Shown here piece by piece: positions 12,270 through 61,661 of a stretch of 64,000 nt of DNA. How positions within the stretch are numbered: position 1 is the first letter of the stretch; each line of letters starts with the position of its first letter. The position numbers and the translations under genes were made by a program. Location of the stretch: assembly GCA_902777335.1 (NCBI GenBank), contig CACYTF010000008.1:378-64377 (forward strand), given 5' to 3'. A model generated the notes under the pieces. It was not told the DNA's origin, ran no database searches, and worked only from the letters and a program-made list of their open reading frames with translations. The DNA comes from an uncultured Eubacteriales bacterium (GTDB lineage: Bacteria; Bacillota; Clostridia; Christensenellales; Aristaeellaceae).

Positions 12270-12330
12270 CCAAAATCGGGGGGACGGTTCTCTGTGTCAA
12301 TGACACAGAGAACCGTCCCTATGATTTTGG
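12270..12330. repeat. REP family A, 61-bp perfect palindrome
   Basis: CCAAAATCGGGGGGACGGTTCTCTGTGTCAATGACACAGAGAACCGTCCCTATGATTTTGG. Confidence 0.9.
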
Positions 12331-12385
12331 TTTGAAATCTGAGCCAAAACGTGCTATAGTCATATCAGTACGATGAGAGGGGTGC

Positions 12386-13492
12386 ATGACGATGAAGAAG
12401 CTGCTGGCGCTGTTGTTTGCGCTGTGCCTGGGCCTGACGGGCTTTGTCCTGGCGGAGGAGCCGCCGCTGGGCCCGGGCTGGAACCTGGGCAACACCTTCG
12501 ACGCCTACCTGGACGGGCAGAATATCGACCCGATGGATCTGGAGACCCTGTGGGTGGGCGCGCGCACCACCGAGGAAGACGTGGCAGCGGTGGCCAACGC
12601 GGGCTTTGAGGTGTTCCGGCTGCCGGTGTCCTGGCATGACCACGTGTCCGGCGACGATTTCGCCATCGACCCGGCGTGGATGGACCGCGTGCAGGAGGTG
12701 GCCGACTGGGTGCTGGCGCGCGGCATGACGCTGATCCTGAACTCCCACCACGACATCGACAAGCGCTTCTTCTACCCGGATTCGGAGCACTACGACCAGT
12801 CCGAGCGCTACCTGACCGCCATCTGGACGCAGATCTGCGAGCGCTTCGGCGGCTACGACGATAAGGTGATCTTTGAGTTCATGAACGAGCCGCGGCTGAA
12901 GGACACGGCCATGGAGTGGGCCTTCGCCGAGCATACGCCGGCCTGCGTGGACGCCGCCGACTGCATCGGCAGGCTCACGCAGCGCTGCGTCGACGTGGTG
13001 CGCGCCTCCGGCGGCAACAACGCCGATCGCTGGCTGTTGGTCACCCCCTACGCCGCCAGCCCCTACTCGGTGCAGACCGACCACTTCCGGCTGCCCAACG
13101 ACCCCGCCGGCCGCCTGATCGTGTCCGTGCACACCTACACGCCCTACGCCTTCACGCTGAAGCCGAACGGCGTGCGCCGGTTCGACCCCACGAAGGCGTA
13201 TCAGGTCAACGAGATCGGCAAGGTGCTGGACATCATGTGCGACAGGTTCGTCAATCAGGGCATACCGGTGTACATCGGCGAGTTCGGCTGCGTCGACCGC
13301 GACAATCTGGAGGACCGCGTGGCCTACATGCGGTACTTCTGCGCCGCCGCCAGGGCGCGCGGCATCTACATGTGCGTGTGGGACAACAACATGTACAAGC
13401 AGGGCAACGAGTGGTTCGGCCTTCTGAACCGCGCCACCGCCGAATGGTACTACCCCGAGATCGTGCAGGCCATGATCGAAGCCAGTAAATAA
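12386..13492 (+). CDS. Secreted glycoside hydrolase family 5 (cellulase family)
   Basis: Signal peptide MTMKKLLALLFALCLGLTGFVLA. GWNLGNTFD, FRLPVSWH, NSHHD, FEFMNEP (acid/base Glu) and IGEFG (nucleophile Glu) are GH5 motifs. Confidence 0.85.
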   Translation: MTMKKLLALLFALCLGLTGFVLAEEPPLGPGWNLGNTFDAYLDGQNIDPMDLETLWVGARTTEEDVAAVANAGFEVFRLPVSWHDHVSGDDFAIDPAWMDRVQEVADWVLARGMTLILNSHHDIDKRFFYPDSEHYDQSERYLTAIWTQICERFGGYDDKVIFEFMNEPRLKDTAMEWAFAEHTPACVDAADCIGRLTQRCVDVVRASGGNNADRWLLVTPYAASPYSVQTDHFRLPNDPAGRLIVSVHTYTPYAFTLKPNGVRRFDPTKAYQVNEIGKVLDIMCDRFVNQGIPVYIGEFGCVDRDNLEDRVAYMRYFCAAARARGIYMCVWDNNMYKQGNEWFGLLNRATAEWYYPEIVQAMIEASK

Positions 13493-13575
13493 GGCGCACG
13501 GGAAAATCAGGGGGAGGTGGCTCGCTTTATGCGATCAGACGAACCCCCGGGATCACCCTGCCAACCCTCTCAGTG

Positions 13576-14295
13576 TCAATCCCCTATGCTCGTCAGATTG
13601 CCCTCCTCGTCATAGTGACCCCGCCAATACTGGTATCCTTCGTCGTCATAATCATATTTCAGGTAGATCTGATACTCCGACAGCGCCTTGTTGTATTGCA
13701 TGCTGTACTCAACGTTGTGTTCATCCACGTCCATGACCGTTTTTGTGCTTACGCTTTCCCATTGGACCTCATACGCATTCGCCGCCTCGGCGTCGCTGTT
13801 TACGATCCTGCAATAGAGCTTGTAACCGTTGGACGCGTATATCTCCACCTCATAGCGGTTCACTTCATCCGTCAGCCGGAGTTCCTCCCCAAGCGCCAGC
13901 AAAGCGCCCCCTTCGGAATCTGAAAACGTCAGGTCGACGGCCTGCAGGTCTTCATATTGCCCTGTGCTGCCCAGGGCGAGCTCTCCGCTTTCCAGATCGA
14001 ATCCCATGTCCGGGACGGCGACGCTCCCGCCCTCCAACAAGCCGAGGATCGTGCCCAGGCCGTCCCACTGATCGGATACCCGCTTGAGATCGCGCCAATC
14101 ATACCTGTCGTTCAACGGCTCCAGGGAATCCGGAAGGCCGCCGGTGGGCTCGGTCAGCGACTCCAGCAGCTCCGCGTCATCGACTGCCTGCCTCATGGTG
14201 TCCAAATCGGTGTGGGCGTCGGCCAGGGCGGACGCGGCGGACAGCGCCAGCAGCGCCGCCAGCATCAGGATCATCCATCGCTTCACGGGTTTCAT
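13576..14295 (-). CDS. Hypothetical secreted protein
   Basis: 239-aa ORF with signal peptide (MKPV)KRWMILMLAALLALSAASALADA. No recognisable domain. The start may be the GTG three codons in (better RBS spacing). Confidence 0.55.
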   Translation of the reverse strand: MKPVKRWMILMLAALLALSAASALADAHTDLDTMRQAVDDAELLESLTEPTGGLPDSLEPLNDRYDWRDLKRVSDQWDGLGTILGLLEGGSVAVPDMGFDLESGELALGSTGQYEDLQAVDLTFSDSEGGALLALGEELRLTDEVNRYEVEIYASNGYKLYCRIVNSDAEAANAYEVQWESVSTKTVMDVDEHNVEYSMQYNKALSEYQIYLKYDYDDEGYQYWRGHYDEEGNLTSIGD

Positions 14296-14453
14296 CCTCC
14301 TTCGATACGCGGACCGGCGACGCGGTCCAACCGGCCATTACGGCTGTGAATGAATGTGTTTTCAGTATAATGGCTTTGCATTGGAAAAGCCACGCCTTCA
14401 AGCCACGCAACATAATTTTTACATAACAGCAACGCCCGCTGCCGACGTACAAC

Positions 14454-14491
14454 AAAACCGCCCTCCACCCACGCAGGGGGAAGGCGGTTTT
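14454..14491 (-). terminator. Rho-independent terminator after rplQ (A-tract/T-tract on both sides)
   Basis: AAAACCGCCCTCCACCCACGCAGGGGGAAGGCGGTTTT: about 10-bp GC stem flanked by A and T runs, 13 nt after the rplQ stop. Confidence 0.7.
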
Positions 14492-14503
14492 CAATGCGTC
14501 CGA

Positions 14504-15013
14504 TCAGATGAACTCCAGGATCACCATCTCGGCGGCGTCGCCGCGACGGGGGCCCTTCTTGACGATGCGGGTGTAGCCGCCGCCCTGGCCCTTCTCAGCG
14601 GCGCGCTTCTTGTACTTGGGCGCGATCTCGCGGAACAGCTTCTCGACGACCTGATGCTTGACGTCCTTCTGGCGCTTCTTGAAATCGTCCTTGTCCTCGC
14701 CCTCGTTCTGGACGGCGGGGATGTCGTACAGGTAGCGCATGATCTGACGACGGGCAGCCAGGCGGGCAGGCGCGTCGTTGGTGACGGTCAGCTCCTCCAC
14801 CTGCTTCTTGTCGTTCATGTGCTTCTTGGTAACTTCGACGGTATTGTCGCACTGACGCATGGCGATGGTCACTAAATGCTCAGCCAGCGACTGAACTTCC
14901 TTGCCGCGCGCCAGAGTGGTTTCGATTTTGCCGTACCAGATCAGGTTGGTCACCTGATTGCGAAGCATCGCCATTCTCTGGTCGGTCGGCCGGCCCAGCT
15001 TGCGATTGGCCAT
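14504..15013 (-). CDS. rplQ: 50S ribosomal protein L17 (long form, internal insertion)
   Basis: [39 protein letters not shown] ... [25 protein letters not shown]. Last gene of the alpha operon. Confidence 0.95.
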
Positions 15014-15056
15014 TTCTGGTTCCTCCCTTGATGCTTTATCGGTAAATGCCCGGGGG

Positions 15057-16028: not shown

Positions 16029-16155
16029 TCAGCGTTTCCTCCTCTCCTTGTCGCAGCCCGGAAAAACCGGGTTGCGGTGCTGGCCCCGCGCCGCGCAAAG
16101 CCGTTTCGTAGCGCGCTATGCGGCCGCAGGGCGATTGACTGTTTCCAGACAGCAA

Positions 16156-16752: not shown

Positions 16753-16770
16753 GTCGGTTTCTCCTCTCGA

Positions 16771-17169: not shown

Positions 17170-17204
17170 AGCGTTTATTCCTCCCAATAATCAAGCAATT
17201 GTTA

Positions 17205-17576: not shown

Positions 17577-17811
17577 GTGTTGTTTGCACCTCCAAATAAC
17601 TTCTATGCTGTGCTTGGAACCGGCGATATTGCCCTTACATAGATTGGGCAGCATCAGCACCGCCCTTCGGCGGCGCCGGGGACCCTTGCGGGCCCTCGCC
17701 CGGGTTTGCGCGTCTGGCGTAACGCCCAAAGCCCTGTGTTTATATGAAGGAATCCCGGAAAACGCGCGGGTCAGGCGCGTCAGCCGCTCCGAAATTCCGT
17801 CAGACCAAATG

Positions 17812-17820
17812 ATTATACCA
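17812..17820 (-). promoter_or_regulatory. Candidate extended -10 (TGGTATAAT) promoter upstream of rpsM
   Basis: Minus strand reads ...gataattgTGgTATAATcatttgg about 240 nt upstream of the rpsM ATG. The -35 is weak. Confidence 0.35.
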
Positions 17821-17948
17821 CAATTATCGCTGCGCCGCTAACATCTTTTATGCAACAATTGTTAAATCTTACATCAAGTTCTGTTATTTCTTGGATTTTG
17901 GCGGATCTGCGCAGGAAAAGTATACAAAATGAAGGAAAACCTTCATCT

Positions 17949-18009
17949 CCAAAATCAGGGGGACGGTTCTCTGTGTCAGTGACACAGAGAACCGTCCCTG
18001 TGATTTTGG
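17949..18009. repeat. REP family A, 61-bp perfect palindrome
   Basis: CCAAAATCAGGGGGACGGTTCTCTGTGTCAGTGACACAGAGAACCGTCCCTGTGATTTTGG, ending 1 nt before the DUF218 gene stop codon. Confidence 0.9.
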
Positions 18010-18010
18010 C

Positions 18011-18883
18011 CTACGGCAAATCCACCGCGCCCTCCGGCACGCCCAGCATGGAGGCCAGCTGGCGGATCGCGAAGCAGTCGTCTGCGGCGTATCTGGACGG
18101 AGGTTGGATCGGAAAGCTGTAGTTGGCCACGATGCGGGCGGAGTAGCCCCAGCTCAGATCGCACAGCGTGGACATGGCGTTGTACAGCACCTGGCTCCAG
18201 CGCTGGTGGTAGGCGGAGGTGACGATGGTCATCGTGTCGACGCCCTGGGCCCGCATGATTGCGAAGGTATTCACCGCGTTCTGCAGCGTGGTCATGGCGT
18301 TCTCGTCGATGCATATCCTGTCCGGGGCGATGCCACAAATTTCCGTCAGGTAGGCCTTCATCATGCCCGCCTCGGTGTGGCCCTCGGGGTTGTTGTCGCC
18401 GGTGGCCCCGCCGGAGCAGACCAGTATCGCTTCCGGGTAGGACCGCGCCGCGGCGGCGGCCGCCGCGCAACGGCCCTTCAATTCGTCGGTCATCTCGCCG
18501 TTCTTCAGCTCAAAGCCCAGCACCACGAAGGCGTGGCGCTCGCCGATCGCCGGGTTCGCCGCCTCCAGCGCCGCCGCGCGCTCGCCGCCGTCGTACAGAT
18601 ACATCGGGTAGTCCGGATCCAGGTAGACGGCCTTCCAATGGTCCACGATGGAGCGGGCGACGGTCAGGTCGGTGGCGCTGATCGAGCCGATGGCCTCCAG
18701 CACCCAGTCGAAATAGGCTTCGTCGCCGTCGGACGGCCGCTCGTAGGCCGACAGCAGCGCCGACAGCAGCACGCCGAAGTTGACCCGGTTGTTTTCGTCG
18801 ACGCGGTAGTAATCCTCCGCCGACGCGCCGGCGGCGCACAGCAGCGCCAGCGCAACGAAAAGCGCCGCGAGCCTTCGCATCAT
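18011..18883 (-). CDS. YdcF/ElyC-family (DUF218) secreted protein
   Basis: Start at MMRRLAALFVALALLCAAGASA (signal peptide). HAFVVLGFEL...ILVCSGGATG...HTEAGMMKAYL...IDENAMTTLQNA...IVTSAYHQRWS matches the DUF218 pattern. Confidence 0.8.
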   Translation of the reverse strand: MMRRLAALFVALALLCAAGASAEDYYRVDENNRVNFGVLLSALLSAYERPSDGDEAYFDWVLEAIGSISATDLTVARSIVDHWKAVYLDPDYPMYLYDGGERAAALEAANPAIGERHAFVVLGFELKNGEMTDELKGRCAAAAAAARSYPEAILVCSGGATGDNNPEGHTEAGMMKAYLTEICGIAPDRICIDENAMTTLQNAVNTFAIMRAQGVDTMTIVTSAYHQRWSQVLYNAMSTLCDLSWGYSARIVANYSFPIQPPSRYAADDCFAIRQLASMLGVPEGAVDLP

Positions 18884-19695
18884 GATACCGTCTCCTCTCC
18901 CGACCCGTCCGGCAGAGCATCGTCCCCCCGAAGGGCCCGCCCCGCCTTCGCCATGCGCCGGGCGCGGCAGAAGCTGAGCCCGGTCAGGCGGGCGATCTGT
19001 CGGATGGAAGCGCCGCGCCGGGCCAGCGTCCGCACGCCCTCGCGCTGTTTTTCGTCCTCCAGGTTCAGATAGTCCGCCGGGGCGTCGCAGCCGGTGCACC
19101 GCTTCATCACCGCCACCGCCTTCCGGTCGGACAGCCGCGGCTCGGCGTATTCCAATTCGTCCATGCAGCGGTCGTCCTCGCCGCGCCTGTGGAATTCGAC
19201 GAATTCCTCGCGGCCGATCATGCCCAATACAAATCCTGTGTCCGTCAGCCCGCCCCCGTCGACATAGTCGGCATAGCTGCTGTAGGGATAGTCCGCGGGG
19301 GCTGCGCAGAGGCCGGCCTTGACCGGATTGCGGTGGATGTACCGCAGCGCGGTCAGCAGGTAAGCATCGTCGTGGATGGCTTCGCTCTTGTACCGGTCCT
19401 GGAAGAGGTGCCCCACCCGGTCGTACTTCAGGTTGTACCAGTACACATAGCTCGCGCCGAGCCGCCTGAACGCCGTGGCCAGGGGCTCGCCGCCCTCCCG
19501 GATCAGCAGGTGGACGTGGTTTGGCATCAGGCAGTACGCGAACAGCTCAAAGCCGCACGCCAGCTTGTACCGCTCCAGCGTCTGCAAAAAGCGCGCATAA
19601 TCCTCCTCGTCGCAGAATATCTTCTGCCGGTTGATGCCCCTGAACATGACGTGATAGGTTCCCGATTCGCTCCGCTCTCTGGCACCTCTTGGCAT
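18880..19695 (-). CDS. RAYT-type (IS200-like Y1/HUH) transposase homologue with C-terminal HTH extension
   Basis: MPRGARERSESGTYHVMFRGINRQKIF...CLMPNHVHLLI (HUH)...GHLFQDRYKSEAI...LRYIHRNPVKAGL (Tyr box). C-terminus ...ASIRQIARLTGLS (HTH). Flanked by REP-A palindromes. Stop overlaps the next start (ATGA). Confidence 0.85.
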   Translation of the reverse strand: MPRGARERSESGTYHVMFRGINRQKIFCDEEDYARFLQTLERYKLACGFELFAYCLMPNHVHLLIREGGEPLATAFRRLGASYVYWYNLKYDRVGHLFQDRYKSEAIHDDAYLLTALRYIHRNPVKAGLCAAPADYPYSSYADYVDGGGLTDTGFVLGMIGREEFVEFHRRGEDDRCMDELEYAEPRLSDRKAVAVMKRCTGCDAPADYLNLEDEKQREGVRTLARRGASIRQIARLTGLSFCRARRMAKAGRALRGDDALPDGSGEETVS

Positions 19696-19748
19696 AACAT
19701 CGCCCCCTTAATACTGAGTATACCCGGCGATGGGCGGCGTGTCAATCC

Positions 19749-19809
19749 CCAAAATCAAGGGGACGGTTCTCTGTGTCATTGACACAGAGAACCGTCCCCT
19801 TGATTTTGG
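19749..19809. repeat. REP family A, 61-bp perfect palindrome
   Basis: CCAAAATCAAGGGGACGGTTCTCTGTGTCATTGACACAGAGAACCGTCCCCTTGATTTTGG, between the RAYT start and the MerR stop. Confidence 0.9.
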
Positions 19810-19816
19810 CCGGGGA

Positions 19817-20803
19817 TCATTTCGCCTTCGGCTTCACCGGGATCAGCAGGTCGAGCTGCGCCGTTTGGGGCTCGCCCTTTTGGGTCCGGCGGACGTGGTC
19901 GTGGTAGTTCAGGTGCTCCTCCAGCGCTCCGAACATGTCGTCCGGGTCGCCGCTGCCGTTGTATTCGTATTCGTCGCTCTCGCGCACCCATCTGTCCAGC
20001 CACTCCCACTCCTGGAAGTTGCCCATCTGGATCATGTGCGCGGCGTAGGTGCCGCCCGGAAAGTGCTTCTTCTCCAGCGGCGGCGGCACCTCGACGCCCT
20101 CCGGCAGCGTGATCCAGAACTCATAGCCGTGCCACCCCGACTCATCCGACGGGCTGGGATGGTTGAAGCCGTACAGCCGCAGCCCGGGGTGCTTCTCCCA
20201 CAGCCGCGTCACGCGCACGAAATCCGAGATCATGTCGCCCGCCCGTTCCTCCGGGTCGTCGCCCACCACGTGGGCCGCGGCGACATCGCTTGCGGGCAGA
20301 TACACGATGCGCACATCCTTCATCGCCTGCCAGCCCTGCTGGCCCTGCTCCAGTTTCTCCATGATGCTTCGCCTCTCCTCCTTAATCAGCGTGGAAGCGG
20401 GTGAAAGGGCGTCGGCCAGGGCCATCAGCCGCTCGTCCTGAAGCAGCGCCTCCCCCGCGGGCAGCGCGCGCCGCTGCTTCAGCGCCTCCAGGAACGCCGC
20501 GATCACGTCCCGGACCGCGCGAAGGGCCTTGAACTCCTCGTCCAGCTGGGCCAGGTTCCGCTCCAGCACCCGCACGGCGGCGGCGGGGCCGGGGTCGGAC
20601 AGTATCTCCCCGATCTCCTTCAGCGACAGCCGCAGCTTGCGCAGCGTCAGGATCTGGCGCAGGCGCAGGATGTCCTCCGGGCCGTACACCCGATAGGCAT
20701 AGCCCTCCCTGCGGTCGCTTCGCATCAGGCCCTGCTTCTCGTAGTGGCGCAGCATCCGCGCGGAGACGCCGTACATCCTGGACACCTCGACGACGGTCAG
20801 CAT
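19817..20803 (-). CDS. MerR-family transcriptional regulator with GyrI-like effector-binding domain
   Basis: Start at MLTVVEVSRMYGVSARMLRHYEKQGLMRSDRREGYAYRVYGPEDILRLRQILTLRKLRLSLKEI (MerR HTH). The C-terminal half resembles the GyrI/SbmC-like fold (...FPGGTYAAHM...). The upstream part of the 421-aa track ORF runs through REP copies. Confidence 0.85.
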   Translation of the reverse strand: MLTVVEVSRMYGVSARMLRHYEKQGLMRSDRREGYAYRVYGPEDILRLRQILTLRKLRLSLKEIGEILSDPGPAAAVRVLERNLAQLDEEFKALRAVRDVIAAFLEALKQRRALPAGEALLQDERLMALADALSPASTLIKEERRSIMEKLEQGQQGWQAMKDVRIVYLPASDVAAAHVVGDDPEERAGDMISDFVRVTRLWEKHPGLRLYGFNHPSPSDESGWHGYEFWITLPEGVEVPPPLEKKHFPGGTYAAHMIQMGNFQEWEWLDRWVRESDEYEYNGSGDPDDMFGALEEHLNYHDHVRRTQKGEPQTAQLDLLIPVKPKAK

Positions 20804-20880
20804 GTCCTCCACTCCTACCGCCCCCTTCCTTCCGCTCCAGTATAAACCGCGACACTGTGTCCGTGTCAAGCCCCCTTCCA

Positions 20881-20976
20881 CCAAAATCACAGGGACGGTT
20901 CTCTGTGTCATTGACACAGAGAACCGTCCCTGTGATTTTGGCCGAGTGACACAGAGAACCGTCCCCCTGATTTTGG
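20881..20976. repeat. REP family A: one 61-bp palindrome (20881-20941) plus a half copy (20946-20976)
   Basis: CCAAAATCACAGGGACGGTTCTCTGTGTCATTGACACAGAGAACCGTCCCTGTGATTTTGG ccga GTGACACAGAGAACCGTCCCCCTGATTTTGG. Confidence 0.9.
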
Positions 20977-21032
20977 CCGGACAAAGCGAAGGCGGGGGAA
21001 CTCGCGTTCCCCCGCCGTTCATTGGGGTTGGA

Positions 21033-21146
21033 TCAACCCTGCTTCTGCTTGTGCTTGGGATTGTCGCAGATGACCATGACACGGCCCTTGCGCTTGATGA
21101 TCTTGCACTTTTCGCAGATGGGCTTCACGGAAGGTCTCACTTTCAT
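21033..21146 (-). CDS. rpmJ: 50S ribosomal protein L36
   Basis: Own translation (below the ORF-track size cutoff): [46 protein letters not shown]. Confidence 0.95.
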
Positions 21147-21227
21147 GATGACATAGCCTCCTATCTTTTTCGGATCGCGCCAGCCGTTCAACCGTTCGGC
21201 TGAAACGATCTGACAGGATAATTGGGT

Positions 21228-34299: not shown

Positions 34300-34355
34300 A
34301 TATATTGTGTGATTTGAATGTTATTTTTCAGAGAAGTTCCGCCCCGCCACAAAAT

Positions 34356-34384
34356 CCTGTCAACAGGACCGTCCCGGTGACAGG
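34356..34384. repeat. REP family B, single unit
   Basis: CCTGTCAACAGGACCGTCCCGGTGACAGG (7-bp stem CCTGTCA/TGACAGG), about 60 nt downstream of the Big_2 gene stop. Confidence 0.85.
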
Positions 34385-36858: not shown

Positions 36859-36919
36859 CCTGTCACGGGGACGGTCCTGTTGTCAGAAAAACCTGACAAC
36901 AGGACCGTCCCCGTGACAG
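36859..36919. repeat. REP family B, inverted pair of units
   Basis: CCTGTCACGGGGACGGTCCTGTTGTCAG aaaaa CCTGACAACAGGACCGTCCCCGTGACAG, 12 nt downstream of the RAYT-2 stop. Confidence 0.9.
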
Positions 36920-36931: not shown

Positions 36932-37672
36932 TCAGGCATCCTGTATGACCCCGCGGTTGATGCCCGTCAGCCGCTCGATCTGCCTGACCGTCAGGCCGCG
37001 CGCCTTGAGCCATCGCAGGGCCGCGTCGCGTTCCTTCTTATTGAATTCCTGCAGCTGGGTGCCGCTGGTCAGCTTGTAGGTGTCGCAGATCAGTTTGCGC
37101 GCCTGGTCGTCGTGAATCCACTGCTTGTCCCGAATGTCCAGGCAGTTTTCCTCGCGCTCCCGCCGCATCCAGTCCGCGAAGCACTTCGGGCCCCCGATCA
37201 TCTCCAGCACGGGCGCGTTGTCGATGCCCTCCCCCGGCGACAGATACTCGCCGTAGCTGCTCCAGCGGTAATCCTCGGCCTTCGCGACGCCCGCCTTCTC
37301 CGGATTGCGGTGAATGTAGCGGACGACCGTCAGCAGGTACTCGTCGCTGTCCACCGCCTCGCTCATATACCGGTCCTGAAACAGGTGCCCGAACCGATCG
37401 TACTTGCGGTTGTAGTAGATGGCGTAGCTCCCGGCGATCTTCTTCATGATCAGGTCGAGCTGATCGCGCGCATCGTGGATCAGCAGGTGGACGTGGTTGT
37501 CCATCAGGCACCAGGCCACCAGATCAAAGCACAGCTCCTGACGGTACCTCAGCACCGTCGAAAGGAACCGCTCGTCGTCCTGCGCGTCTTCAAACAGGAT
37601 CTGCCTGCCGATGCCGCGCAGTATCACGTGGTAGTATCCGCTCTCGCACTTCTGACGCGCTGTTCTGGGCAT
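36932..37672 (-). CDS. RAYT-type (IS200-like Y1/HUH) transposase homologue with C-terminal HTH (second paralogue)
   Basis: Start at MPRTARQKCESGYYHVILRGIGRQILF...CLMDNHVHLLI (HUH)...GHLFQDRYMSEAV...VRYIHRNPEKAGV (Tyr box)...LTVRQIERLTGIN (HTH). RBS AGGGGG. Flanked on both sides by REP-B. The upstream part of the 307-aa track ORF runs through REP-B. Confidence 0.85.
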   Translation of the reverse strand: MPRTARQKCESGYYHVILRGIGRQILFEDAQDDERFLSTVLRYRQELCFDLVAWCLMDNHVHLLIHDARDQLDLIMKKIAGSYAIYYNRKYDRFGHLFQDRYMSEAVDSDEYLLTVVRYIHRNPEKAGVAKAEDYRWSSYGEYLSPGEGIDNAPVLEMIGGPKCFADWMRREREENCLDIRDKQWIHDDQARKLICDTYKLTSGTQLQEFNKKERDAALRWLKARGLTVRQIERLTGINRGVIQDA

Positions 37673-37720
37673 AAAATCATTCCCCCTTTCTTGAAATTCA
37701 GTATAGCATCGGTGGAAAAA

Positions 37721-37782
37721 GTTGTCAACAGGACCGTCCCGGTGACAGGAAAACCTGACAACAGGACCGTCCCGGTGACAGG
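37721..37782. repeat. REP family B, two direct units
   Basis: GTTGTCAACAGGACCGTCCCGGTGACAGG aaaa CCTGACAACAGGACCGTCCCGGTGACAGG, 48 nt upstream of the RAYT-2 start. Confidence 0.9.
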
Positions 37783-37853: not shown

Positions 37854-40800
37854 ATGTTTTCCAGATACAGCGTGAAAAAGCCCTACACCGTCATCGTGGG
37901 CGTCATACTGGTGATCGTGCTCGGGGTCATCTCCTTTCAGAAGATGACCACCGATCTGCTGCCCAGCATGGACCTGCCCTACGTGGTGGTGTTCACCAGC
38001 TATGTGGGGGCCACGCCTGAGCAGGTGGAGTCGGAGATCACCCGCCCGATGGAGGCCGCCTTCGCCACGCTGACGGACATGAAGAAGATCACCTCCTCCT
38101 CCCGGGACAATGTGTCCGTGGTGACGATGCAGTTCAACGACGGCGCGAACATGGACACCGCCCTGATCGAGATCTCGTCGCGGCTGGACCAGCTGCGGGG
38201 CGGCTGGGGCGACGAGATCGGCGCGCCGGTGACCATGAAGCTGAACCCGGATATGCTGCCGGTGGCGATACTCTCCGTCACCCGGGACGACATGGACATA
38301 CTCGCCCTGTCGGACTATGTGGAGGACAAGCTGGTCCCCGCCTTTGAATCGCTGAACGGCGTGGCCTCGGCCAGCGCCTCGGGCGTGATCCAGCAGCGCG
38401 TGGACATCACCATCGAGCAGAGCCGCATCGACGTGCTGAACAGCGCCATATTGGAGGACATCGACGCCGAGCTGGCCGAGGTCGAGCGCCAGCTGAACGA
38501 CGCCCAGGCCCAGCTCTCCGACGGCAAGAACGCCCTGGCCCGGGCGAAGCGGCAGGCCCTGAAGCAGATCGACGACGCCCTCGCGGCCATCGACCAGGGC
38601 AGCGGCCAGATCGCCCCGGCCATCGAGCAGCTGACCGCGCAGCGGGACCAGCTGATCGCCCAGCGGGACCAGGCGGAGGCCGCCCTCCAGGCGCTGGAGG
38701 GCCTGATGGGCATGGACGACACCCAGCGCGGCGCGCTCCTGATGATGCAGCAGGGCCTGGAGCTGCTGAAGGACCGGCTGACGGCCCTCGAGGCGCAGCT
38801 GGCCCGGGGCACGGACGCCGGCGACGCCGACGCTGACGCCCTGCGCGAACAGCTGATCGCCCAGCGGGACGCGCTGGCGAACCAGCTGGAGCAGCAGCGC
38901 GCCTACCTGAGCGACCTGGGGCTCATCAGCCCCGACGCGCTGCAGAAGGAGATCGACCGCCTGACCTCTGGCATCAAGGACAATGAGGGCGCGCTGGCCG
39001 ACGCCCGGGCGGAGCTTCAGCAATTGCAGGCCCAGCGCGACGCCGCCCAGGCCGCCATCGACGATCTCACCCGCCGCATCGCCGAGGCCGAAACCACCGC
39101 CGCACCATCAGAGAACGAGGCGCCGGCGGGGACGGAGGTGCCGGCTGTTACCGACGCGCCGGTGGAGACGGAGGCGCCTGCGGATGGGGAGACGACCTCT
39201 TCAGTCTCGCCTGACGGCGAGCCAGCTTCCCCTGAAGGGGAAGCCTCAGGAGAACCCCAAGAGCCTTCCCCCGTTGGGGAAGGTGCCGAGCGTAGCGAGG
39301 CGGAAGAGGTCTCCACTCCCGCTGAGCCTACGGACAAATCCTCTGAGGAGGAGACGACCTCTTCAGTCTCGCCTGACGGCGAGCCAGCTTCCCCTGAAGG
39401 GGAAGCCTCAGGAGAACCCCAAGAGCCTTCCCCTTCAGGGGAAGGTGGCAGCGCGCAAGCGCTGACGGAAGAGGTCTCCACTCCCGCTGAGCCTACGGAC
39501 AAATCCTCTGAGGAGGAGACGACCTCTTCAGTCTCGCCTGGCGGCGAGCCAGCTTCCCCTGAAGGGGAAGCCTCAGGAGACCCCGCTGACACGACCCAAG
39601 AACCCTCCCCAGATGGGAAGGCTGAAGACCCCGCCGACGCCACCCAAAAGCCTTCCCCCGTTGGGGAAGGTGCCGAGCGCAGCGAGGCGGAAGAGGTCTC
39701 CGCTCCCGCTGAAACGACGGCAGATACGACCGCGGATGAGGTCTCCCCTCCCGCCGAGCCAAAACTCGAAGCCCCCGCGGACGATGTCCCCTTGTCCGCC
39801 GAACCCACCGCCTCCCCCGATCCCGCCGACACATCCGAACCTTCCCCCGAACCCACCCTCGAACCCGAGGGCATGGCGCGGCGGCCCTTTGGCATGGCGG
39901 CCATGGCGGAGGAGGACGACGTGGAGGCGATGCGGGCGCAGCTGGACGAGGCGCGAAAGAACCTGGCCAGGCTGGCGGCGGACATCGCCGAGCAGTCGGA
40001 GCTGGTGGACGCGCTGGCCGCCGCCCTGGACGTGGACCGGGACACCCTCGAAAAGCGCCTGGCGGAGCTGGCGGCGCTGGGCGAGGACGAGGACGTGCGG
40101 AGCCGCTCCGAGGAGGCCCAGCGCGTCATCGACATGCTGGCCGAGCGCATCGTGAAGCTGGACGAGGAGCTGCGGCAGATCGACGCCGACAACGCGCCCG
40201 ATGCCCTGCGCCAGGCCATCGCGGTGCTCCGGGAGCAGATCAGCGACATCGAGGCCAGCGACGCCTACCAGGCCATGGCGCTGCTGAAGGACCCCGACGC
40301 CCTGAAGGCCCAGTATACCCAGGTCAAGGACGGCGTGGCGCAGCTGAACGACGGCATCGCCCAGATCGACGCGACGCTGGAGAAGCTGAACAAGGGCGTC
40401 ATTCCCGGCGGTTTCATCGACGGCATCGACGAGGACACCAACCTGGCGGACGCCCGCAGCGCCCTCACCGCCGCCCGCGCCAAGGCCGTCAGCGGCTTTG
40501 CCGACGCCGCCGCCCAGATCAGCGCGGGCGAGGCGGAGCTCAACAAGGCCCGCAAGGAATTCAACGACAAGCGCGAGGAGGCCCTCGAAAACGCCGGGCT
40601 GGACGGCGTGATCACCGTGCAGATGGTCTCCGGCCTGATCGGCGCGCAGAACTTCGCCATGCCCGCGGGCTACGTGTACGACGCAGACAGCGAGCAGGTG
40701 CTGGTGCGCGTGGGCGACAAGTTCGACAGCCTGGACGCGCTGCGGCGGATGAAGCTGTTCCACCTGGGGCTGGATTCCATACAGGACGTGCGCCTGCTGG

Positions 40801-43334
40801 ACGTGGCCAGCGTGGAGCTGGCCGACGACCGGGACGAGGTGTTCACCAAGCTGAACGGCACGGACGGCATACTGCTGTCGCTGGAGAAGCAGTCCACCTA
40901 CTCCACCGCCGACGTGGCCGGCACCATACTGGCCCGCGCCGACGCGCTGATGGCCGAGGACCCGAGCCTGCACATCGTGGACCTGATGAACCAGGGCGAG
41001 TACATCAGCATCATCGTGGATTCGGTGCTGAACAACCTGATCTCCGGCGGCGGCCTGGCGATACTGGTGCTGCTGCTGTTTCTGATGGACCTGCGGCCCA
41101 CGATCACGGTGGCCTTCTCGATTCCCATCAGCGTGGTCATCGCCTTCGTGTGCATGTACTTCACCGGCATCACGCTGAACGTGCTGTCGCTGTCCGGCCT
41201 CAGCCTGGGCATCGGCATGCTGGTGGACAATTCCATCGTGGCCATCGAGAACATCTACCGCCTGCACGACGAGGAGGGCGTGCCGCTGCTGCGCGCCTGC
41301 GTGGAGGGCGTGCGCTCGGTCTCCGGCGCGCTGTTCGCCTCCACGCTGACCACGATCTGCGTGTTCCTGCCCATCGTGTTCGTGCAGGGCATGGCCCGGG
41401 ACCTGTTCAGCGACATGGGCCTGTCCATCGCCTACTCGCTGCTGGCCTCGCTGCTGGTGGCCATGACGGTGGTGCCCGCCATGTGCTCGTTCCTGATGCG
41501 CCGCTCCAAGCCCCGCAGGCACCCGGTGTTCGGCATGCTGCAGCGCTTCTACACCTTCCTGCTGCGCGGCGCGCTGCGGGTGAAGCCGCTGGTGCTGCTG
41601 GCGGCTCTGGGCCTGCTGGCCTTTGCCGCCATGCAGGTGCCGAAGATGGGCATCTCCTTCATGCCGGAGGTCAACTCCCGGCAGATGAGCGCCACGCTGG
41701 CCCTCGACCCGGAGATGCCCGACGCCCAGCAGAAGGACCTGGCCGTGGCCATCATGGACGACATGATGCAGGTGGACGGCGTGGACAGCGTGGGCCTGAT
41801 GGGCGGCAGCGGCGGCCTGCTGGGCGGGCTGGCCGAGGGCGGCGGCATGTCCTACTACATCATGATCGACGAGGGCACCGACCGCCGGAACGCCGACATC
41901 GCCCGGGAGATGGCCGAGATCGGCCAGCGCCGCGGCGCGGACCTGTCCGTCAGCGCCAGCACGATGGACATCTCCATGCTCACCGGCAGCGGCATCTCCG
42001 CCGAGATCACCGGCAGCGACATCGAGACCCTGCAGAAGATCGCCCTGGACGTGGCCGAGCTGGCCCGGCAGACCGAGGGCGTCGTGGACGTGAGCGACGG
42101 CCTGGAGGACGCCGTGCCGGAGCTGCGCATACAGGTGGACAAGGAAAAGGCCATCGACTCAGGCCTGACCACCGCCCAGGTGTTCCAGTTCATCGCCCAG
42201 AAGGTGATGGGCCGGGTGGAGATCACGAAGGTGACGCTGGACGGCAAGGACCTGAGCGTGTATATGCGGGACGGCGCGAACAGCGAACTTCGGCCCGGGG
42301 ACCTGGAGAACCTGGAGATCGAGGTGGACGGCGAGACGGAGAACAAGCGGGTGCGCGTGGGCGACATCGCCGAGGTGCTGGAGACCCAGAGCCTCTCCAC
42401 CATCCACCGCTCCAGCCAGCGGCGGCTGGTGACCGTGTCCTTCGGCATCGCCGAGGGCTACAGCGCCAATTTGGTCAGCGACGCCTTCGCGGCGAAGCTG
42501 AAGGACTACGCCGTGCCCGCCGGCTACAGCGTGGAGCTGGCCGGCGAAAACGAGACCGTCATGAAGATCATGCACGACCTGGTCTGGATGGTGGTGGTGG
42601 CGGTGCTGCTGATCTTCCTGATCATGGTGGCCCAGTTCCAGAGCTTCAAGTCCCCCATCATCGTCATGTTCACGATCCCGCTGGCCTTCACCGGCGGCCT
42701 GCTGGCGCTGATTCTCACCGGCATGGACCTGTCCATCGTCAGCATGCTGGGCTTCCTGGTGCTCTCCGGCGTGGTGGTGAACAACGGCATCGTGTTCATC
42801 GACTGCGTGAACCAGCTGCGCATCGGCGGCATGGAGAAGCGCGAGGCCCTGGTGGAGACCGGCCGCATCCGCCTGCGCCCGATATTGATGACGGCGCTGA
42901 CCACGATACTGGGCGTGTCCACCATGGCGCTGGGCCGCGGCATGGGCGCGGAGATGATGCAGCCCATGGCCGTGGTGTCCATCGGCGGCCTGAGCTACGC
43001 CACGCTGATGACGCTGTTCGTGGTGCCGGTGCTGTACGACCTGCTCAACGGCAAGACCATGAAGGCCCGGGAGATCCAGATGATCAAGGAGGCCGCCGGC
43101 CTGAACGGGAGCGATGTATCGGAGGGCGAGCCCGCCGCGCCGACGCCCGTCGCCCCCGCGATCCCCGCGCCCGCCGCGCCTCAGGCCGAAGCGCCGGAGG
43201 AACCACCCGTTCCCGAGCCAGCCGAACCCCCCGCCCCCGCGCCCGCGCCCGACACCCCCGCCATCACCCCCGACAGCTTCCGCTACACCCCGCCCCCAAA
43301 GGCCATGCGGGTGAAGATGGGGAGAAGGAAGTAG
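37854..43334 (+). CDS. RND/MMPL-superfamily efflux transporter permease, 1826 aa, with a roughly 700-aa coiled-coil/acidic-repeat insertion and a Pro-rich C-terminal tail
   Basis: N-terminus MFSRYSVKKPYTVIVGVILVIVLGVISFQKMTTDLLPSMDLPYVVVFTSYVGATPEQVE and the 12-TM architecture are AcrB/SwrC-like (...GIGMLVDNSIVAIENI..., ...LSGVVVNNGIVFIDCVNQ...). GGGAGG RBS. Confidence 0.85.
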   Translation: MFSRYSVKKPYTVIVGVILVIVLGVISFQKMTTDLLPSMDLPYVVVFTSYVGATPEQVESEITRPMEAAFATLTDMKKITSSSRDNVSVVTMQFNDGANMDTALIEISSRLDQLRGGWGDEIGAPVTMKLNPDMLPVAILSVTRDDMDILALSDYVEDKLVPAFESLNGVASASASGVIQQRVDITIEQSRIDVLNSAILEDIDAELAEVERQLNDAQAQLSDGKNALARAKRQALKQIDDALAAIDQGSGQIAPAIEQLTAQRDQLIAQRDQAEAALQALEGLMGMDDTQRGALLMMQQGLELLKDRLTALEAQLARGTDAGDADADALREQLIAQRDALANQLEQQRAYLSDLGLISPDALQKEIDRLTSGIKDNEGALADARAELQQLQAQRDAAQAAIDDLTRRIAEAETTAAPSENEAPAGTEVPAVTDAPVETEAPADGETTSSVSPDGEPASPEGEASGEPQEPSPVGEGAERSEAEEVSTPAEPTDKSSEEETTSSVSPDGEPASPEGEASGEPQEPSPSGEGGSAQALTEEVSTPAEPTDKSSEEETTSSVSPGGEPASPEGEASGDPADTTQEPSPDGKAEDPADATQKPSPVGEGAERSEAEEVSAPAETTADTTADEVSPPAEPKLEAPADDVPLSAEPTASPDPADTSEPSPEPTLEPEGMARRPFGMAAMAEEDDVEAMRAQLDEARKNLARLAADIAEQSELVDALAAALDVDRDTLEKRLAELAALGEDEDVRSRSEEAQRVIDMLAERIVKLDEELRQIDADNAPDALRQAIAVLREQISDIEASDAYQAMALLKDPDALKAQYTQVKDGVAQLNDGIAQIDATLEKLNKGVIPGGFIDGIDEDTNLADARSALTAARAKAVSGFADAAAQISAGEAELNKARKEFNDKREEALENAGLDGVITVQMVSGLIGAQNFAMPAGYVYDADSEQVLVRVGDKFDSLDALRRMKLFHLGLDSIQDVRLLDVASVELADDRDEVFTKLNGTDGILLSLEKQSTYSTADVAGTILARADALMAEDPSLHIVDLMNQGEYISIIVDSVLNNLISGGGLAILVLLLFLMDLRPTITVAFSIPISVVIAFVCMYFTGITLNVLSLSGLSLGIGMLVDNSIVAIENIYRLHDEEGVPLLRACVEGVRSVSGALFASTLTTICVFLPIVFVQGMARDLFSDMGLSIAYSLLASLLVAMTVVPAMCSFLMRRSKPRRHPVFGMLQRFYTFLLRGALRVKPLVLLAALGLLAFAAMQVPKMGISFMPEVNSRQMSATLALDPEMPDAQQKDLAVAIMDDMMQVDGVDSVGLMGGSGGLLGGLAEGGGMSYYIMIDEGTDRRNADIAREMAEIGQRRGADLSVSASTMDISMLTGSGISAEITGSDIETLQKIALDVAELARQTEGVVDVSDGLEDAVPELRIQVDKEKAIDSGLTTAQVFQFIAQKVMGRVEITKVTLDGKDLSVYMRDGANSELRPGDLENLEIEVDGETENKRVRVGDIAEVLETQSLSTIHRSSQRRLVTVSFGIAEGYSANLVSDAFAAKLKDYAVPAGYSVELAGENETVMKIMHDLVWMVVVAVLLIFLIMVAQFQSFKSPIIVMFTIPLAFTGGLLALILTGMDLSIVSMLGFLVLSGVVVNNGIVFIDCVNQLRIGGMEKREALVETGRIRLRPILMTALTTILGVSTMALGRGMGAEMMQPMAVVSIGGLSYATLMTLFVVPVLYDLLNGKTMKAREIQMIKEAAGLNGSDVSEGEPAAPTPVAPAIPAPAAPQAEAPEEPPVPEPAEPPAPAPAPDTPAITPDSFRYTPPPKAMRVKMGRRK
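39186..39700 (+). repeat. In-frame tandem repeat (about 162-165 bp, 3 copies plus degenerate flanks) inside the RND gene, encoding acidic P/E/S-rich units
   Basis: Unit ETTSSVSPDGEPASPEGEASGEPQEPSPVGEGAERSEAEEVSTPAEPTDKSSEE. GAGACGACCTCTTCAGTCTCGCCT recurs at 39190, 39351 and 39516. Confidence 0.85.
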
Positions 43335-43371: not shown

Positions 43372-43386
43372 AATACGTATGCATTT

Positions 43387-43481
43387 CCTGACACCGGGAC
43401 GGTCCTGTTGTCAGGAAAAGCTGACAACAGGACCGTCCCCGTGACAGGAAAAGTTGTCAGTAGGACCGTCCCCGTGACAGG
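43387..43481. repeat. REP family B, three units (one inverted plus two direct)
   Basis: CCTGACACCGGGACGGTCCTGTTGTCAGG aaaag CTGACAACAGGACCGTCCCCGTGACAGG aaaa GTTGTCAGTAGGACCGTCCCCGTGACAGG. Lies in the convergent spacer between the RND and caspase genes. Confidence 0.9.
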
Positions 43482-43483
43482 AA

Positions 43484-45529: not shown

Positions 45530-45616
45530 GGAGGGAGGAGTTAGTAGTGAGGAGTTAGGAGCAGGAGAATGCCGGGGCGGGAGGGTACAGGGAACAGGGT
45601 ACAGGGAACAGGAATA
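45530..45616. repeat. Purine-rich heptanucleotide array (GGAGTTA, GGGTACA, GGGAACA...)
   Basis: GGAGGAGTTAGTAGTGAGGAGTTAGGAGCAGGAG...GGGTACAGGGAACAGGGTACAGGGAACAGGAATAG. Complement of the CCCTGTT family. Confidence 0.85.
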
Positions 45617-46098: not shown

Positions 46099-46134
46099 AA
46101 TTCCTCATTCCTAATTCCTCATTCCTCATTCCCC
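46099..46134. repeat. Heptanucleotide array ATTCCTC x about 5
   Basis: AATTCCTCATTCCTAATTCCTCATTCCTCATTCCCC. Complement of the GAGGAAT array at 61228-61262. Confidence 0.85.
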
Positions 46135-51779: not shown

Positions 51780-51781
51780 TA

Positions 51782-55242: not shown

Positions 55243-55265
55243 GGGTTGGTGGTTGGTGGTTGGTG

Positions 55266-55678
55266 GCTGCCGCGCGGTGGGCGCGCATGTGCGCTAACTT
55301 CGAATTCCGTGCTATCCCCCTTGCCTCGCCCCCCGTGAGGGGAAGAGGTGCCCGCAGGGCGGAGAGGGGGCTCCCCTGCCTACCGCGCAAGACGAACCAG
55401 AAGACCCCTCTCAGGCGCTTCGCGCCAGCTCTCCCCGTCACCGGGGCGAGCCAAGGCTACCGCGCGGTACGCTGACCTCAAACTCCGCACTATCCCGTTA
55501 CCGGGGCGAGCCAAGGCTGCCGCGCGGTGCGCTGACCTCAAACTCCGCACTATCCCGTCACCGGGGCGAGCCAAGGCTACCGCGCGGTGCGCTGACCTCG
55601 AACCTTGCGCTTATCCGCCTTGCCTCGCCCCCGTGAGGGGGAGAGGTGCCCGCAGGGCGGAGAGGGGTCCTCTCCCCC
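55266..55678. repeat. Family C tandem array, reverse-complement orientation relative to 8866-9436
   Basis: CCCCCTTGCCTCGCCCCCCGTGAGGGGAAGAGGTGCCCGCAGGGCGGAGAGGGGG (X, rc), present twice. Three units of CACCGGGGCGAGCCAAGGCTRCCGCGCGGTRCGCTGACCTCAAACTCCGCACTATCCCGT. Confidence 0.85.
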
Positions 55679-57567: not shown

Positions 57568-57699
57568 CCCCTGTTCCCTGTTCCCTGCTCCCTGTTCCCT
57601 GTTCCCTGTTCCCTGCTCCCTGTTCCCTGTTCCCTGTTCCCTGTTCCCTGTTCCCTGTTCCCTGTTCCCTGTTCTCTGTTCCCCTACTCCCTACTCCCT
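57568..57699. repeat. Longest heptanucleotide array: about 16 x CCCTGTT (two CCCTGCT variants) plus 2-3 x CCCTACT
   Basis: Read directly. Starts 1 nt after the pepV stop and ends 20 nt before the cmk ATG. Confidence 0.9.
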
Positions 57700-57718
57700 A
57701 AAAGAAAGGAACATCACC

Positions 57719-58396: not shown

Positions 58397-58397
58397 C

Positions 58398-58985: not shown

Positions 58986-59144
58986 GTGATCGTAAAAATT
59001 ACGTAAACTATCGAATCATTGCAGGAATAATACAGGACTCAATCGAAATTAAACGGATAGCATAAATAGTATAGTTATGCATGTATACGACGAGTATACA
59101 TATCGGTTTGATCGAAAAAGCGGAGGCGGTTTCCCATCGCGGGC

Positions 59145-61166: not shown

Positions 61167-61178
61167 TCCCAAACCCGC

Positions 61179-61206
61179 AAAAGCGGCACGCTATGTGCCG
61201 CTTTTG
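61179..61206 (+). terminator. Rho-independent terminator after ispH-S1
   Basis: AAAAGCGGCACgctatGTGCCGCTTTTG. Confidence 0.75.
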
Positions 61207-61227
61207 TCGTGGAGGAAGAGGCGGATG

Positions 61228-61262
61228 GAAATGAGGAATGAGGAATGAGGAATGAGGAATTG
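61228..61262. repeat. Heptanucleotide array GAGGAAT x about 4
   Basis: GAAATGAGGAATGAGGAATGAGGAATGAGGAATTG. Confidence 0.85.
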
Positions 61263-61305
61263 TGGTACAAATCCCATCCGGGATTTGTTGGATTCAAGGG
61301 AGAAC

Positions 61306-61562
61306 GGATTGCCATGTTGGCCTCTCTCCGTTCGGCCTCCTCGCAATGACAGGGCGGAGGCGGCTGCCCCCCGCTCTGTCATTGCGAGGAGCCCCCGACG
61401 CAGGAGGGGCCGACGTGGCAATCCGGTCCCCTTCCCCGGCGCTCAAAGTGAGTCAGTAGGAACCTGTCCCCGGTGACTCACACAATGACACGCAAGCGGC
61501 AGCCACCCCCGCTCTGTCATTGCGAGGCGGCTCCGACGCAGGAGGGGCCGACGTGGCAATCC
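61306..61562. repeat. Three copies (one inverted) of a palindromic ATTGC...GCAAT element (GTCATTGCGAGG...GACGTGGCAATCC)
   Basis: 61306-61350 GGATTGCCATGTTGGCC...CCTCGCAATGAC. 61378-61423 and 61507-61562 GTCATTGCGAGG(A/C)G(C)CCCCGACGCAGGAGGGGCCGACGTGGCAATCC. A half copy GGATTGCCACGT lies at about 45628. Confidence 0.8.
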
Positions 61563-61661
61563 GGTCCCCGTTGGCGCATCAAAGTGAGATAAGGAACCGT
61601 CCCTCATCTCACATTCACCCCTCACTCGACTGAGATAAGGGACGGTTCCTTGTCTCACTTT
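61445..61661. repeat. REP-like variant (family E): AAAGTGAGATAAGGAACCGTCCC / GGGACGGTTCCTTGTCTCACTTT inverted pair plus a hybrid half-site
   Basis: Arms at 61581-61603 and 61639-61661 (1 mismatch). Related half-site AAAGTGAGTCAGTAGGAACCTGTCCCCGGTGAC at 61445-61477. Shares the GGGACGGT core with families A and B. Confidence 0.75.

Follow-up and report, generated by a model that had tools for sequence, protein, structure and literature searches.

Two Y1 genes and their flanking repeats

We analyzed a 64,000-nt stretch of contig CACYTF010000008.1 (the window), which belongs to a rumen Clostridia genome (uncultured Eubacteriales bacterium). It carries two genes for proteins of the Y1/HUH tyrosine transposase type, Y1-A and Y1-B, together with short G-rich repeats (Table 1). 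The repeat units are scattered in intergenic DNA, where they occur as singles, inverted pairs, and short tandems. Two of the repeat families, A and B, flank the two genes, and two more, E and F, lie together in a repeat-rich spacer. For comparison, we used loci that encode Y1 relatives, 80 from genomes and 80 from metagenomes.

Y1-A and Y1-B are 43% identical (BLASTP), and Y1-A scores 83.5 bits against the NCBIfam model REP_Tyr_transpos, above its cutoff of 80 bits. The start of Y1-B was set at MPRTARQ by alignment of homologs because the longer open reading frame reads across the upstream repeat. A sequence search of the PDB returned 4ER8 (E. coli TnpAREP) as the sole match. Foldseek, queried with the AlphaFold model of Y1-A (mean predicted local distance difference test score, or pLDDT, 88), also placed 4ER8 first (E 1.5e-8, TM 0.76), followed by IS200/IS605 transposases (E about 1e-5). 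HVH at residues 60–62 and Y119 align to H59-M60-H61 and Y115 of 4ER8; H60, H62, Y119, S139, and S140 are invariant in 89 homologs, and N123 is nearly invariant. The model has an extra helical C-terminal domain, whose helices at residues ~190–254 are predicted at high pLDDT and include a conserved RQIxRLTG turn. The C-terminus gave weak matches to the helix-turn-helix (HTH) families HTH_28, HTH_23, and HTH_38 (E 0.005–0.07), all below the Pfam cutoffs. The protein family comprises 1,329 clusters at 50% identity (E ≤ 1e-30), and plasmids are nearly free of it, with matches in 3 of 72,556 records, all weak relatives. The closest relative in the genome scan was 52% identical among the matches listed, and the exact Y1 protein was found solely on contigs of 1.6–1.8 kb whose ends are palindromes.

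An initial annotation of this DNA had aligned three arm strings by eye around a common core, and all three strings are present where it placed them. The core GGGACGGT matches the window 20 times, compared with 2.73 ± 1.70 matches expected, and none of 100 shuffles reached 20. All but one of these matches (19/20) lie in intergenic repeats, the remaining one (7354) being a chance match within a gene. Family A forms a 61-bp palindrome that is nearly perfect, its two 30-nt arms separated by 1 nt; family B has arms of 27–31 nt and a spacer of 6 nt. The hybrid site of the initial annotation (61445-61480) is a complete fourth unit, GTGAGTCA-CCGGGGACAGGTTCCTAC-TGACTCAC, which we named family F. The window holds four dialects of the repeat, A, B, E, and F.

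Table 1. Positions of the Y1 genes, repeat units, and associated features in the window.
Feature	Position	Strand	Remarks
Family A palindrome, solo	12268-12332	.	Between divergent parA-like and GH5 genes
Family A palindrome	17949-18009	.	2 nt past DUF218 stop; closes Y1-A/DUF218 unit
DUF218 gene	18011-18883	-	ATG overlaps Y1-A stop (ATGA, 18880-18883); linkage also in L083, L086
Y1-A	18880-19695	-	271-aa HUH/Y1 tyrosine transposase-like protein with C-terminal HTH; Pfam Y1_Tnp E 8.7e-14
Y1-A promoter-like site, TTGACA-17-TATACT	19717-19745	-	11/12 matches; 3 nt from palindrome
Family A palindrome	19749-19809	.	Just upstream of Y1-A promoter; 8 nt downstream of merR-like stop; arms 100% complementary
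merR/GyrI-like gene	19817-20803	-	Between two family A palindromes; part of 3.1-kb rpmJ-rpsM insert
Family A palindrome, with third arm (direct repeat)	20881-20941; third arm 20947-20976	.	Between rpmJ and merR-like gene
Family B single unit	34346-34383	-	Covariance-model E 0.012
Family B inverted pair	36860-36919	.	12 nt past Y1-B stop; 27-nt arms 100% complementary
Y1-B	36932-37672	-	246-aa paralog; Pfam Y1_Tnp E 6e-16
Y1-B promoter (predicted), TTGACA-17-TATACT	37728-37700		-35 box in proximal family B 3′ arm
Family B, two direct units	37720-37781	-	Upstream of Y1-B; proximal 3′ arm GTTGACAAC includes -35 box
Family B inverted pair, with third arm	43384-43451; third arm 43455-43483	.	Between convergent genes
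Family F unit, core GGGGACAGGTTCC	61445-61480	-	Perfect 8-bp stem GTGAGTCA/TGACTCAC
Family E, two inverted self-folding units, TGAGAT(G/A)A-GGGACGGTTCC-TT(A/G)TCTCA	61581-61611, 61631-61661	.	

The core is a hairpin tip between variable stem arms

The recurring unit at the comparison loci is built, in this order, from a 7–8-nt 5′ arm, GGGGACGGTTCT, and a 3′ arm complementary to the first, as in AAGACAG-GGGACGGTTCT-CTGTCTT and CAATCAG-GGGACGGTTCT-CTGATTG. The core is a conserved G-rich hairpin tip, GGGGACGGTTCT, held between lineage-specific stem arms of 7–8 bp. The strings of the earlier core-and-arm alignment were correct, but their anatomy was not, each being the conserved apex of a hairpin plus the 3′ half of its variable stem. 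Most of the 80 genome loci show strong enrichment of GGGACGG. The shared core that the initial annotation had proposed from a few copies persists when more copies are included and is conserved far beyond the source genome, across Bacillota Y1 loci. In the usual layout, one unit upstream of the gene, ~60 nt from the ATG, is matched by an inverted one 20–60 nt past the stop codon; the upstream core is found 54–75 nt before the ATG in 33 of 48 units. Among the 165 loci retrieved, this layout holds across Bacillota and at some loci of Actinomycetota and Bacteroidota. A full-text literature search for the core sequence returned only unrelated eukaryotic and viral primers.

Covariation was scored in 61 units from 47 loci that have an identical 10-nt core, GGGACGGTTC, with the register fixed by the core alone. 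At the eight flanking positions 74.6% of cells were paired, compared with 50.8 ± 1.7% in shuffles (0/500), and double changes were seen at all eight stem pairs. The covariation score was 0.627, as against 0.237 for shuffles and 0.12–0.23 when the partner was slid. Two wobble positions of the apex are conserved, G14.T24 (87%) and G16.T22 (100%); extension of the helix to a CGG triloop is therefore open to the G-rich strand but not to its complement. These apex wobbles hint that one strand is the active form.

A covariance model built from other genomes only recovered each of the window's 19 arms of families A, B, and E (E ≤ 0.07), and the family E units were its top two matches (26.7 and 25.9 bits). 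Matches at 39119-39800 were discarded as false positives, as they are coding repeats of a gene for a 1826-aa protein. Family E units are predicted to fold alone (-6.2 kcal/mol, z -2.9), as is the family F unit (-7.6 and -8.8 kcal/mol). Folding of single family B units is weak, with a T.T mismatch in the stem. Single arms of family A are unfolded (-0.4 kcal/mol, z +0.8); the 61-nt palindrome as a whole folds (DNA, -35.7 kcal/mol, z -15).

Partial tandem or dispersed duplications of units were observed at L090 (5442, 6397, 7934), L004, L006, L013, and L017. They comprise the 5′ arm and apex, sometimes with a promoter segment, but not the 3′ arm. Their boundaries fall after TTCT or inside the G-run and may mark the cut site of the enzyme. 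A separate observation concerns the solo and extra units of the window (20947-20976, 34346-34383, 37720-37781, 43455-43483, and 61445-61480), in which the G-rich core lies on the minus strand in 6/6 cases, a small sample of units that are not independent.

By contig depth, repeat units are multi-copy and the Y1 genes are not

Copy number was estimated by placing on the window those Logan contigs from bovine and other gut metagenomes that contain window sequence. Metagenome contigs end at every palindrome, and many continue from a unit into unrelated sequence. Summed contig depth at the family A palindrome 19749-19809 was 172–494, compared with 9–19 in its flanks, and at the family B pair 36860-36919 it was as high as 845, compared with 16–24. 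Family E reached 255–540 and family F 60–78 (about 3–4x), with flanks at about 20. Overall, units of A, B, and E were 10–40x as deep as their flanks, and the depth of the Y1-A and Y1-B genes equaled that of single-copy flanks. These values indicate tens of copies of A, B, and E and a few of F. At the first spacer base of the family B palindrome (position 36887), G rather than A is found in most of its other copies (depth 633/658 in run X1), and the copy adjacent to Y1-B is therefore a minority variant. The palindromes have a practical consequence as well: they break up short-read assemblies of rumen Clostridia, since contigs end at every unit.

Stem dialects follow the linked gene

The initial annotation had proposed that enzymes and repeats co-diverge in specificity, and it had considered the possibility that both enzymes are tied to both families indiscriminately. 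We found no such mixing: the repeats on either side of Y1-A are all of family A, and those beside Y1-B are all of family B. Relatives of Y1-A at 89%, 65%, and 61% identity keep the CCAAAATCA-N-GGGGACGGTTCTCTGTG arms, which form palindromic pairs to either side of the gene, and the inner stem and spacer vary while CCAAAATCA..GGGGACGGTTCTCTGTG stays. These relatives (61–89%) share the rpmJ/rpsM junction, with a different cargo order in the orthologs at 61–65%. Relatives of Y1-B at 91% identity keep the GGTCCT apex and the neighboring giant gene, and their stems differ by a compensatory change, CCTG/CAGG having become CTTG/CAAG. At 64–70% identity, the TGTCA/TGACA stems are kept with the common GGTTCT apex in other gene neighborhoods.

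Across 66 loci the distance between 5′ arms correlated with protein distance (Mantel r 0.18, p 0.0002), saturating at ~0.66 once proteins differ by >45%. Apex distance showed no correlation with protein distance in the same loci (Mantel p 0.15). The stems track protein similarity, and the tip does not. Within the flanks of a single gene, the upstream arm differs from the downstream arm at 0.21 of positions, compared with 0.66 between genes. Five loci have two Y1 genes; copies that are 98–100% identical have the same arms (L010, L051), and among the three paralog pairs at 43–49% identity the two with scoreable arms (L004, L025) both have arms that differ. Own-dialect flanks, fidelity among orthologs, and the Mantel correlation all bear out the pattern of co-divergence. 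The specificity that had been read into it does not follow, as this pattern is equally expected from plain co-inheritance of the gene and its flanks.

Overlap with predicted promoters and terminators

TTGAC/T was found in or beside the 3′ arm in 18 of 48 upstream units and in 2 of 36 downstream units, so the -35 box is often part of the upstream unit. The family A outer arms CCAAAATCA/TGATTTTGG provide T-tracts on both strands. Family A palindromes are predicted intrinsic terminators on both strands, with 11 sites where 2.0 ± 1.5 were expected. A terminator scan of 17700-21200 gave sites on both strands, each a GC-rich stem followed by a T-tract, at 3/3 family A palindromes.

Comparison with known systems

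Di Nocera et al. (2013) described RAYT-like genes with long inverted flanking repeats that share GGGGWSAS, under the names TIRtrons and TIRYTs; in these systems the distance between gene and repeat is similar, some of the repeats are self-complementary, and they are found singly, as dimers, or in clusters. The main text of that paper does not mention Firmicutes (PMC3733652). Quentin et al. (2018) assigned most TIRYTs to TnpAY1 subclass 2.1, whose defining features are length, an HTH at the C-terminus (Bac_DnaA_C, HTH_23, HTH_28), and a serine motif (PMC6006769). The predicted protein features of Y1-A and Y1-B fit this TIRYT/subclass 2.1 description: both are Y1/HUH proteins that exceed RAYT in length, with an HTH at the C-terminus and a serine motif that follows the catalytic tyrosine. 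The repeats also resemble those of TIRtrons, as they are inverted, flank the gene at a near-constant distance, carry a motif equal or close to GGGG(A/T)(C/G)A(C/G), and occur as singles, dimers, and clusters. Family F (GGGGACAG) fits the GGGGWSAS motif exactly, and A, B, and E (GGGGACGG) fit at 7/8 positions, with G for A at position 7. In contrast to published TIRtrons, the motif here forms the tip of a hairpin whose stems covary.

By structure and by sequence, the best relative is the E. coli REPtron, TnpAREP (YafM) with its REP/BIME repeats (PDB 4ER8; PMC3479197, PMC8266576). The two systems share the HUH motif as well as a catalytic Tyr in the same helix, alphaD (Y115 ~ Y119), N123 being the equivalent of N119, and in both, inverted copies of a hairpin repeat that occurs genome-wide lie on either side of the gene. 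They differ in that the repeats here have no 5′ GTAG tag and contain the conserved element inside the hairpin instead of beside it. The proteins here further have ~100 extra C-terminal residues with an HTH and an alanine in place of the H123 ligand, and the host belongs to Bacillota, not Proteobacteria. The initial annotation had identified two diverged RAYT paralogs next to two diverged REP families. Paralogs and REP-like repeats are present, but a canonical GTAG-REP/RAYT system is ruled out by the lack of a GTAG tag and by the position of GGGGACGGTTCT between the stem arms. We also considered CGTC-tagged REPs (PMC3733652), because the reverse strand reads CCGTCCC; they were rejected, as their tag lies outside an 8–9-bp stem, their loops are 4–5 nt, and they have no associated transposase.

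A one-to-one relationship between enzyme and repeat family, and co-evolution of enzyme and REP, have been established in Pseudomonas and for three proteobacterial TnpAREP/REP pairs (PMC3116915, PMC8266576). Like the REPIN-RAYT systems of Pseudomonas fluorescens SBW25, this one has several paralogs in one genome, each with its own repeat family, and inverted doublets are common (PMC3116915, PMC5581495); it also persists vertically at one locus, at least for the Y1-A lineage. Unlike SBW25, it involves another enzyme clade, family A arms that cannot fold alone, and one apex common to all dialects. With IS200/IS605 elements (IS608 and ISDra2 TnpA) the Y1 proteins share the catalytic fold, and recognition of single-stranded DNA hairpins would be the expected chemistry by analogy. 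However, membership in IS200/IS605 was rejected on the basis of a low NCBIfam transpos_IS200 score (18.1 bits; cutoff 55) and the inverted orientation of the units, which are upstream and downstream copies of one sequence rather than distinct left and right hairpins on the same strand. In addition, the proteins are ~2x as long as TnpA (about 130–150 aa), and there is no tnpB, the neighbors being DUF218, merR-like, and surface protein genes.

The kind of system is already known, but accounts of its repeat structure in this enzyme subclass have so far been sketchy. Among RAYT-like enzymes, TnpAY1 subclass 2.1 forms the second largest class and is not known to have any biochemistry, its repeats having been described only as 'TIRs' or as absent. 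New here are a multi-copy hairpin whose stems covary and whose 12-nt apex is shared across phyla, the breadth of the system across Bacillota, the overlap of upstream unit and promoter, one rumen genome with four dialects and at least two cognate enzymes, and a testable, putative role for the HTH helix in dialect choice.

Proposed mechanism and alternative explanations

Taken together, we think it highly probable that Y1-A and Y1-B with their repeats are two TIRtron-type units of the RAYT-related Y1/HUH superfamily, of the TIRYT kind or TnpAY1 subclass 2.1, in which each gene is flanked by inverted hairpin repeats of its own dialect and in which the repeats share one apex and are dispersed in multiple copies. 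By analogy to E. coli TnpAREP and IS608 TnpA, the enzyme would bind the folded G-rich strand, and its HUH/tyrosine site would cleave and rejoin single-stranded DNA, thereby spreading and maintaining units in trans. The conserved catalytic domain would read the conserved apex, and the stems could drift by compensatory change along with the linked gene. Binding would probably also autoregulate the gene, because the upstream unit overlaps or abuts the -35 box. Family A may have lost self-folding single arms and would now exist only as 61-bp palindromes, which probably double as bidirectional terminators.

Several points weigh against this interpretation. Quentin et al. (2018) found no REP-like sequences for subclass 2.1 (PMC6006769). 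Y1-B, with 66.9 bits, falls under the REP_Tyr_transpos cutoff, and the metal ligand H123 of E. coli TnpAREP is replaced by Ala127 in this family. Hairpin recognition cannot work alike in every dialect, since single arms of family A are unfolded. The copy numbers are rough ratios of metagenome depth in which related strains could be included. More generally, binding, cleavage, mobilization, autoregulation, and termination are inferred here from sequence. Finally, the second gene copies with 98–100% identity at L010 and L051 point to the behavior of an insertion sequence and not of a domesticated enzyme.

This last point leads to a competing explanation, an autonomous insertion sequence in which the gene and its two flanking units copy themselves and solo units are decayed or miniature derivatives. 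The second gene copies at L010 and L051 are 100% and 98% identical and have identical arms, and L090 contains three copies of the upstream unit with a promoter segment. Each Y1 gene is nevertheless present once in the window, at the depth of its single-copy flanks, and while relatives of Y1-B at 64–70% lie in unrelated gene neighborhoods, the Y1-A lineage stays at the rpmJ/rpsM junction (61–89%) and the neighbor of Y1-B is kept at 91%. Given also that relatives occur on merely 3 of the 72,556 plasmid records and that the flanking repeats are inverted, unlike the same-strand left and right ends of IS200/IS605, we regard a self-copying element as improbable. The repeats could also be host regulatory elements (bidirectional terminators, operators, or mRNA stabilizers) kept by selection, with the Y1/HTH protein acting as a regulator that no longer moves DNA. 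The HTH domain of the Y1 proteins, the predicted terminators in family A palindromes, 3 of 4 of which lie just past a stop codon, and the many genomes in which the upstream unit overlaps the -35 box would all be explained in this way. However, the HUH histidines and catalytic tyrosine are invariant in the 89 homologs, and units of families B, E, and F lack flanking T-tracts on the transcribed strand. A terminator role also leaves unexplained the 12-nt apex found across phyla, the dialects within one genome, and the partial tandem duplications of arms. A purely regulatory function therefore appears very unlikely.

Specificity co-evolution would add to co-inheritance the ability of each Y1 paralog to tell its own dialect, the HTH recognition helix reading the stem and the catalytic domain the apex. 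The presumed recognition helix, nine residues that follow the RQIxRLTG turn, is highly variable. In the genome set, with the catalytic domain controlled, arm similarity tracked these nine residues (partial Mantel r 0.125–0.22, p 0.0008–0.004), also when only upstream arms, 800 nt from the HTH coding region, were used (r 0.14, p 0.004). The corresponding partial Mantel test was not significant in the independent metagenome set (r 0.03–0.085, p 0.06–0.32), and in the pooled set the catalytic domain was a better predictor of the arm than the helix. Particular helices recur with particular stems: SKSVI with GGGACA/TGTCCC, xNRG with GTCA/TGAC (including Y1-B), YYVIQK with CAATCA, and SFxxxR with ACACA/TGTGT (including Y1-A) in the genome set, and SLDIVKK with GGCAC, SLSLI with GAAACA, and xNR(G/N) with GTCA in the metagenome set. 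These helix groups were, however, initially spotted by eye. Among pairs with a catalytic distance of ≥40%, those with similar helices had more similar arms (p 0.0002 overall, 0.003 in the metagenome set, 0.047 across sets), but the effect was small (arm distance 0.46 vs 0.51). The apex tracked neither of the two domains, whether in the genome set or after pooling, which speaks for this proposal. Shared ancestry of the C-terminal domain could give the same helix/stem signal.

The link between stem and recognition helix is thus suggestive only. As an explanation of the stems, the helix was positive in the genome set and failed to replicate by partial Mantel test in the metagenome set, and we keep specificity co-evolution as a tentative alternative, possible but not probable. 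We are more doubtful still about a general two-part recognition, in which the HUH domain would read the invariant apex GGGGACGGTTCT and a rapidly evolving HTH helix the stem, such that orthogonal dialects could coexist in one genome, four of them here. If it were true, TnpAY1 subclass 2.1 would be a naturally re-targetable family for single-strand DNA processing across Bacillota. The two TIRtron-type units of the window provide a compact, testable system for divergence between an HUH enzyme and its DNA substrate and for whether the extra HTH domain sets specificity.

Neighboring genes and other repeats

Y1-A lies in a 3.1-kb insert (17823-21031) that splits the normally adjacent rpmJ (21033-21146) and rpsM. 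The insert consists of the merR-GyrI gene and Y1-A-DUF218, in this order, with an A palindrome before, between, and after them. In one metagenome contig (run X4), 17822 is joined to 21032 and the insert is missing, the shorter side of the joint being only 30 nt. The DUF218 gene also adjoins the Y1-A orthologs at 89% and 65% identity, in a different order in the latter, and this adjacency suggests a conserved partnership. Y1-B has large repeat-containing genes on both sides, at 37854-43334 (1826 aa, ~165-nt repeats) and 34448-36700 (750 aa, ~273-nt repeats), and the giant 1826-aa neighbor is kept beside the 91% ortholog (L087). Searches of the window for tRNA genes and, at gathering thresholds, for Rfam families gave no match.

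The initial annotation had also pointed to a second motif, CCCCGGTGAC, recurring in several repeat families. This sequence only reflects the point at which, in families B and F, the 5′ stem arm (..GTCAC) meets the G-run, read as the reverse complement; CCCGGTGAC occurs 11 times, compared with 1.2 expected. A further tandem repeat, family C (60/61 nt; 8934-9221 and 9343-9406, inverted at 55434-55603), has the same 9–10-mer as the B/F junction but no GGGAC core. Because its units lack this core and have a different fold context, a link of family C to the Y1 system through CCCCGGTGAC was rejected. Family C has no Rfam match and is flanked by a second 60-nt repeat (8862-8921 and 9286-9345), of which an inverted copy lies near 55300-55370.

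The spacer that contains families E and F also holds a ~66-nt repeat, CCCCCGCTCTGTCATTGCGAGG..GACGCAGGAGGGGCCGACGTGGCAATCCGGTCCCC, with two copies and an inverted partner at 61334-61571; it too is multi-copy by contig depth. Many intergenic tandem arrays in the window have a 7-nt period, for example CCCTGTT x16, AGGGAAC, TCCTCAC, and CTCCACT (57569-57683; 928-956, 3996-4022, 10459-10489, 45582-45612, and 46100-46132; further arrays at 55244-55266, 61230-61260, 61691-61713, and 61747-61777). One such period, AACAGGG, looks like the arm and G-run of a GGAACAG dialect. At L014, L028, L034, L066, L068, and L080, short tandem arrays of 5′ arm plus G-run directly adjoin the units that flank the Y1 gene.

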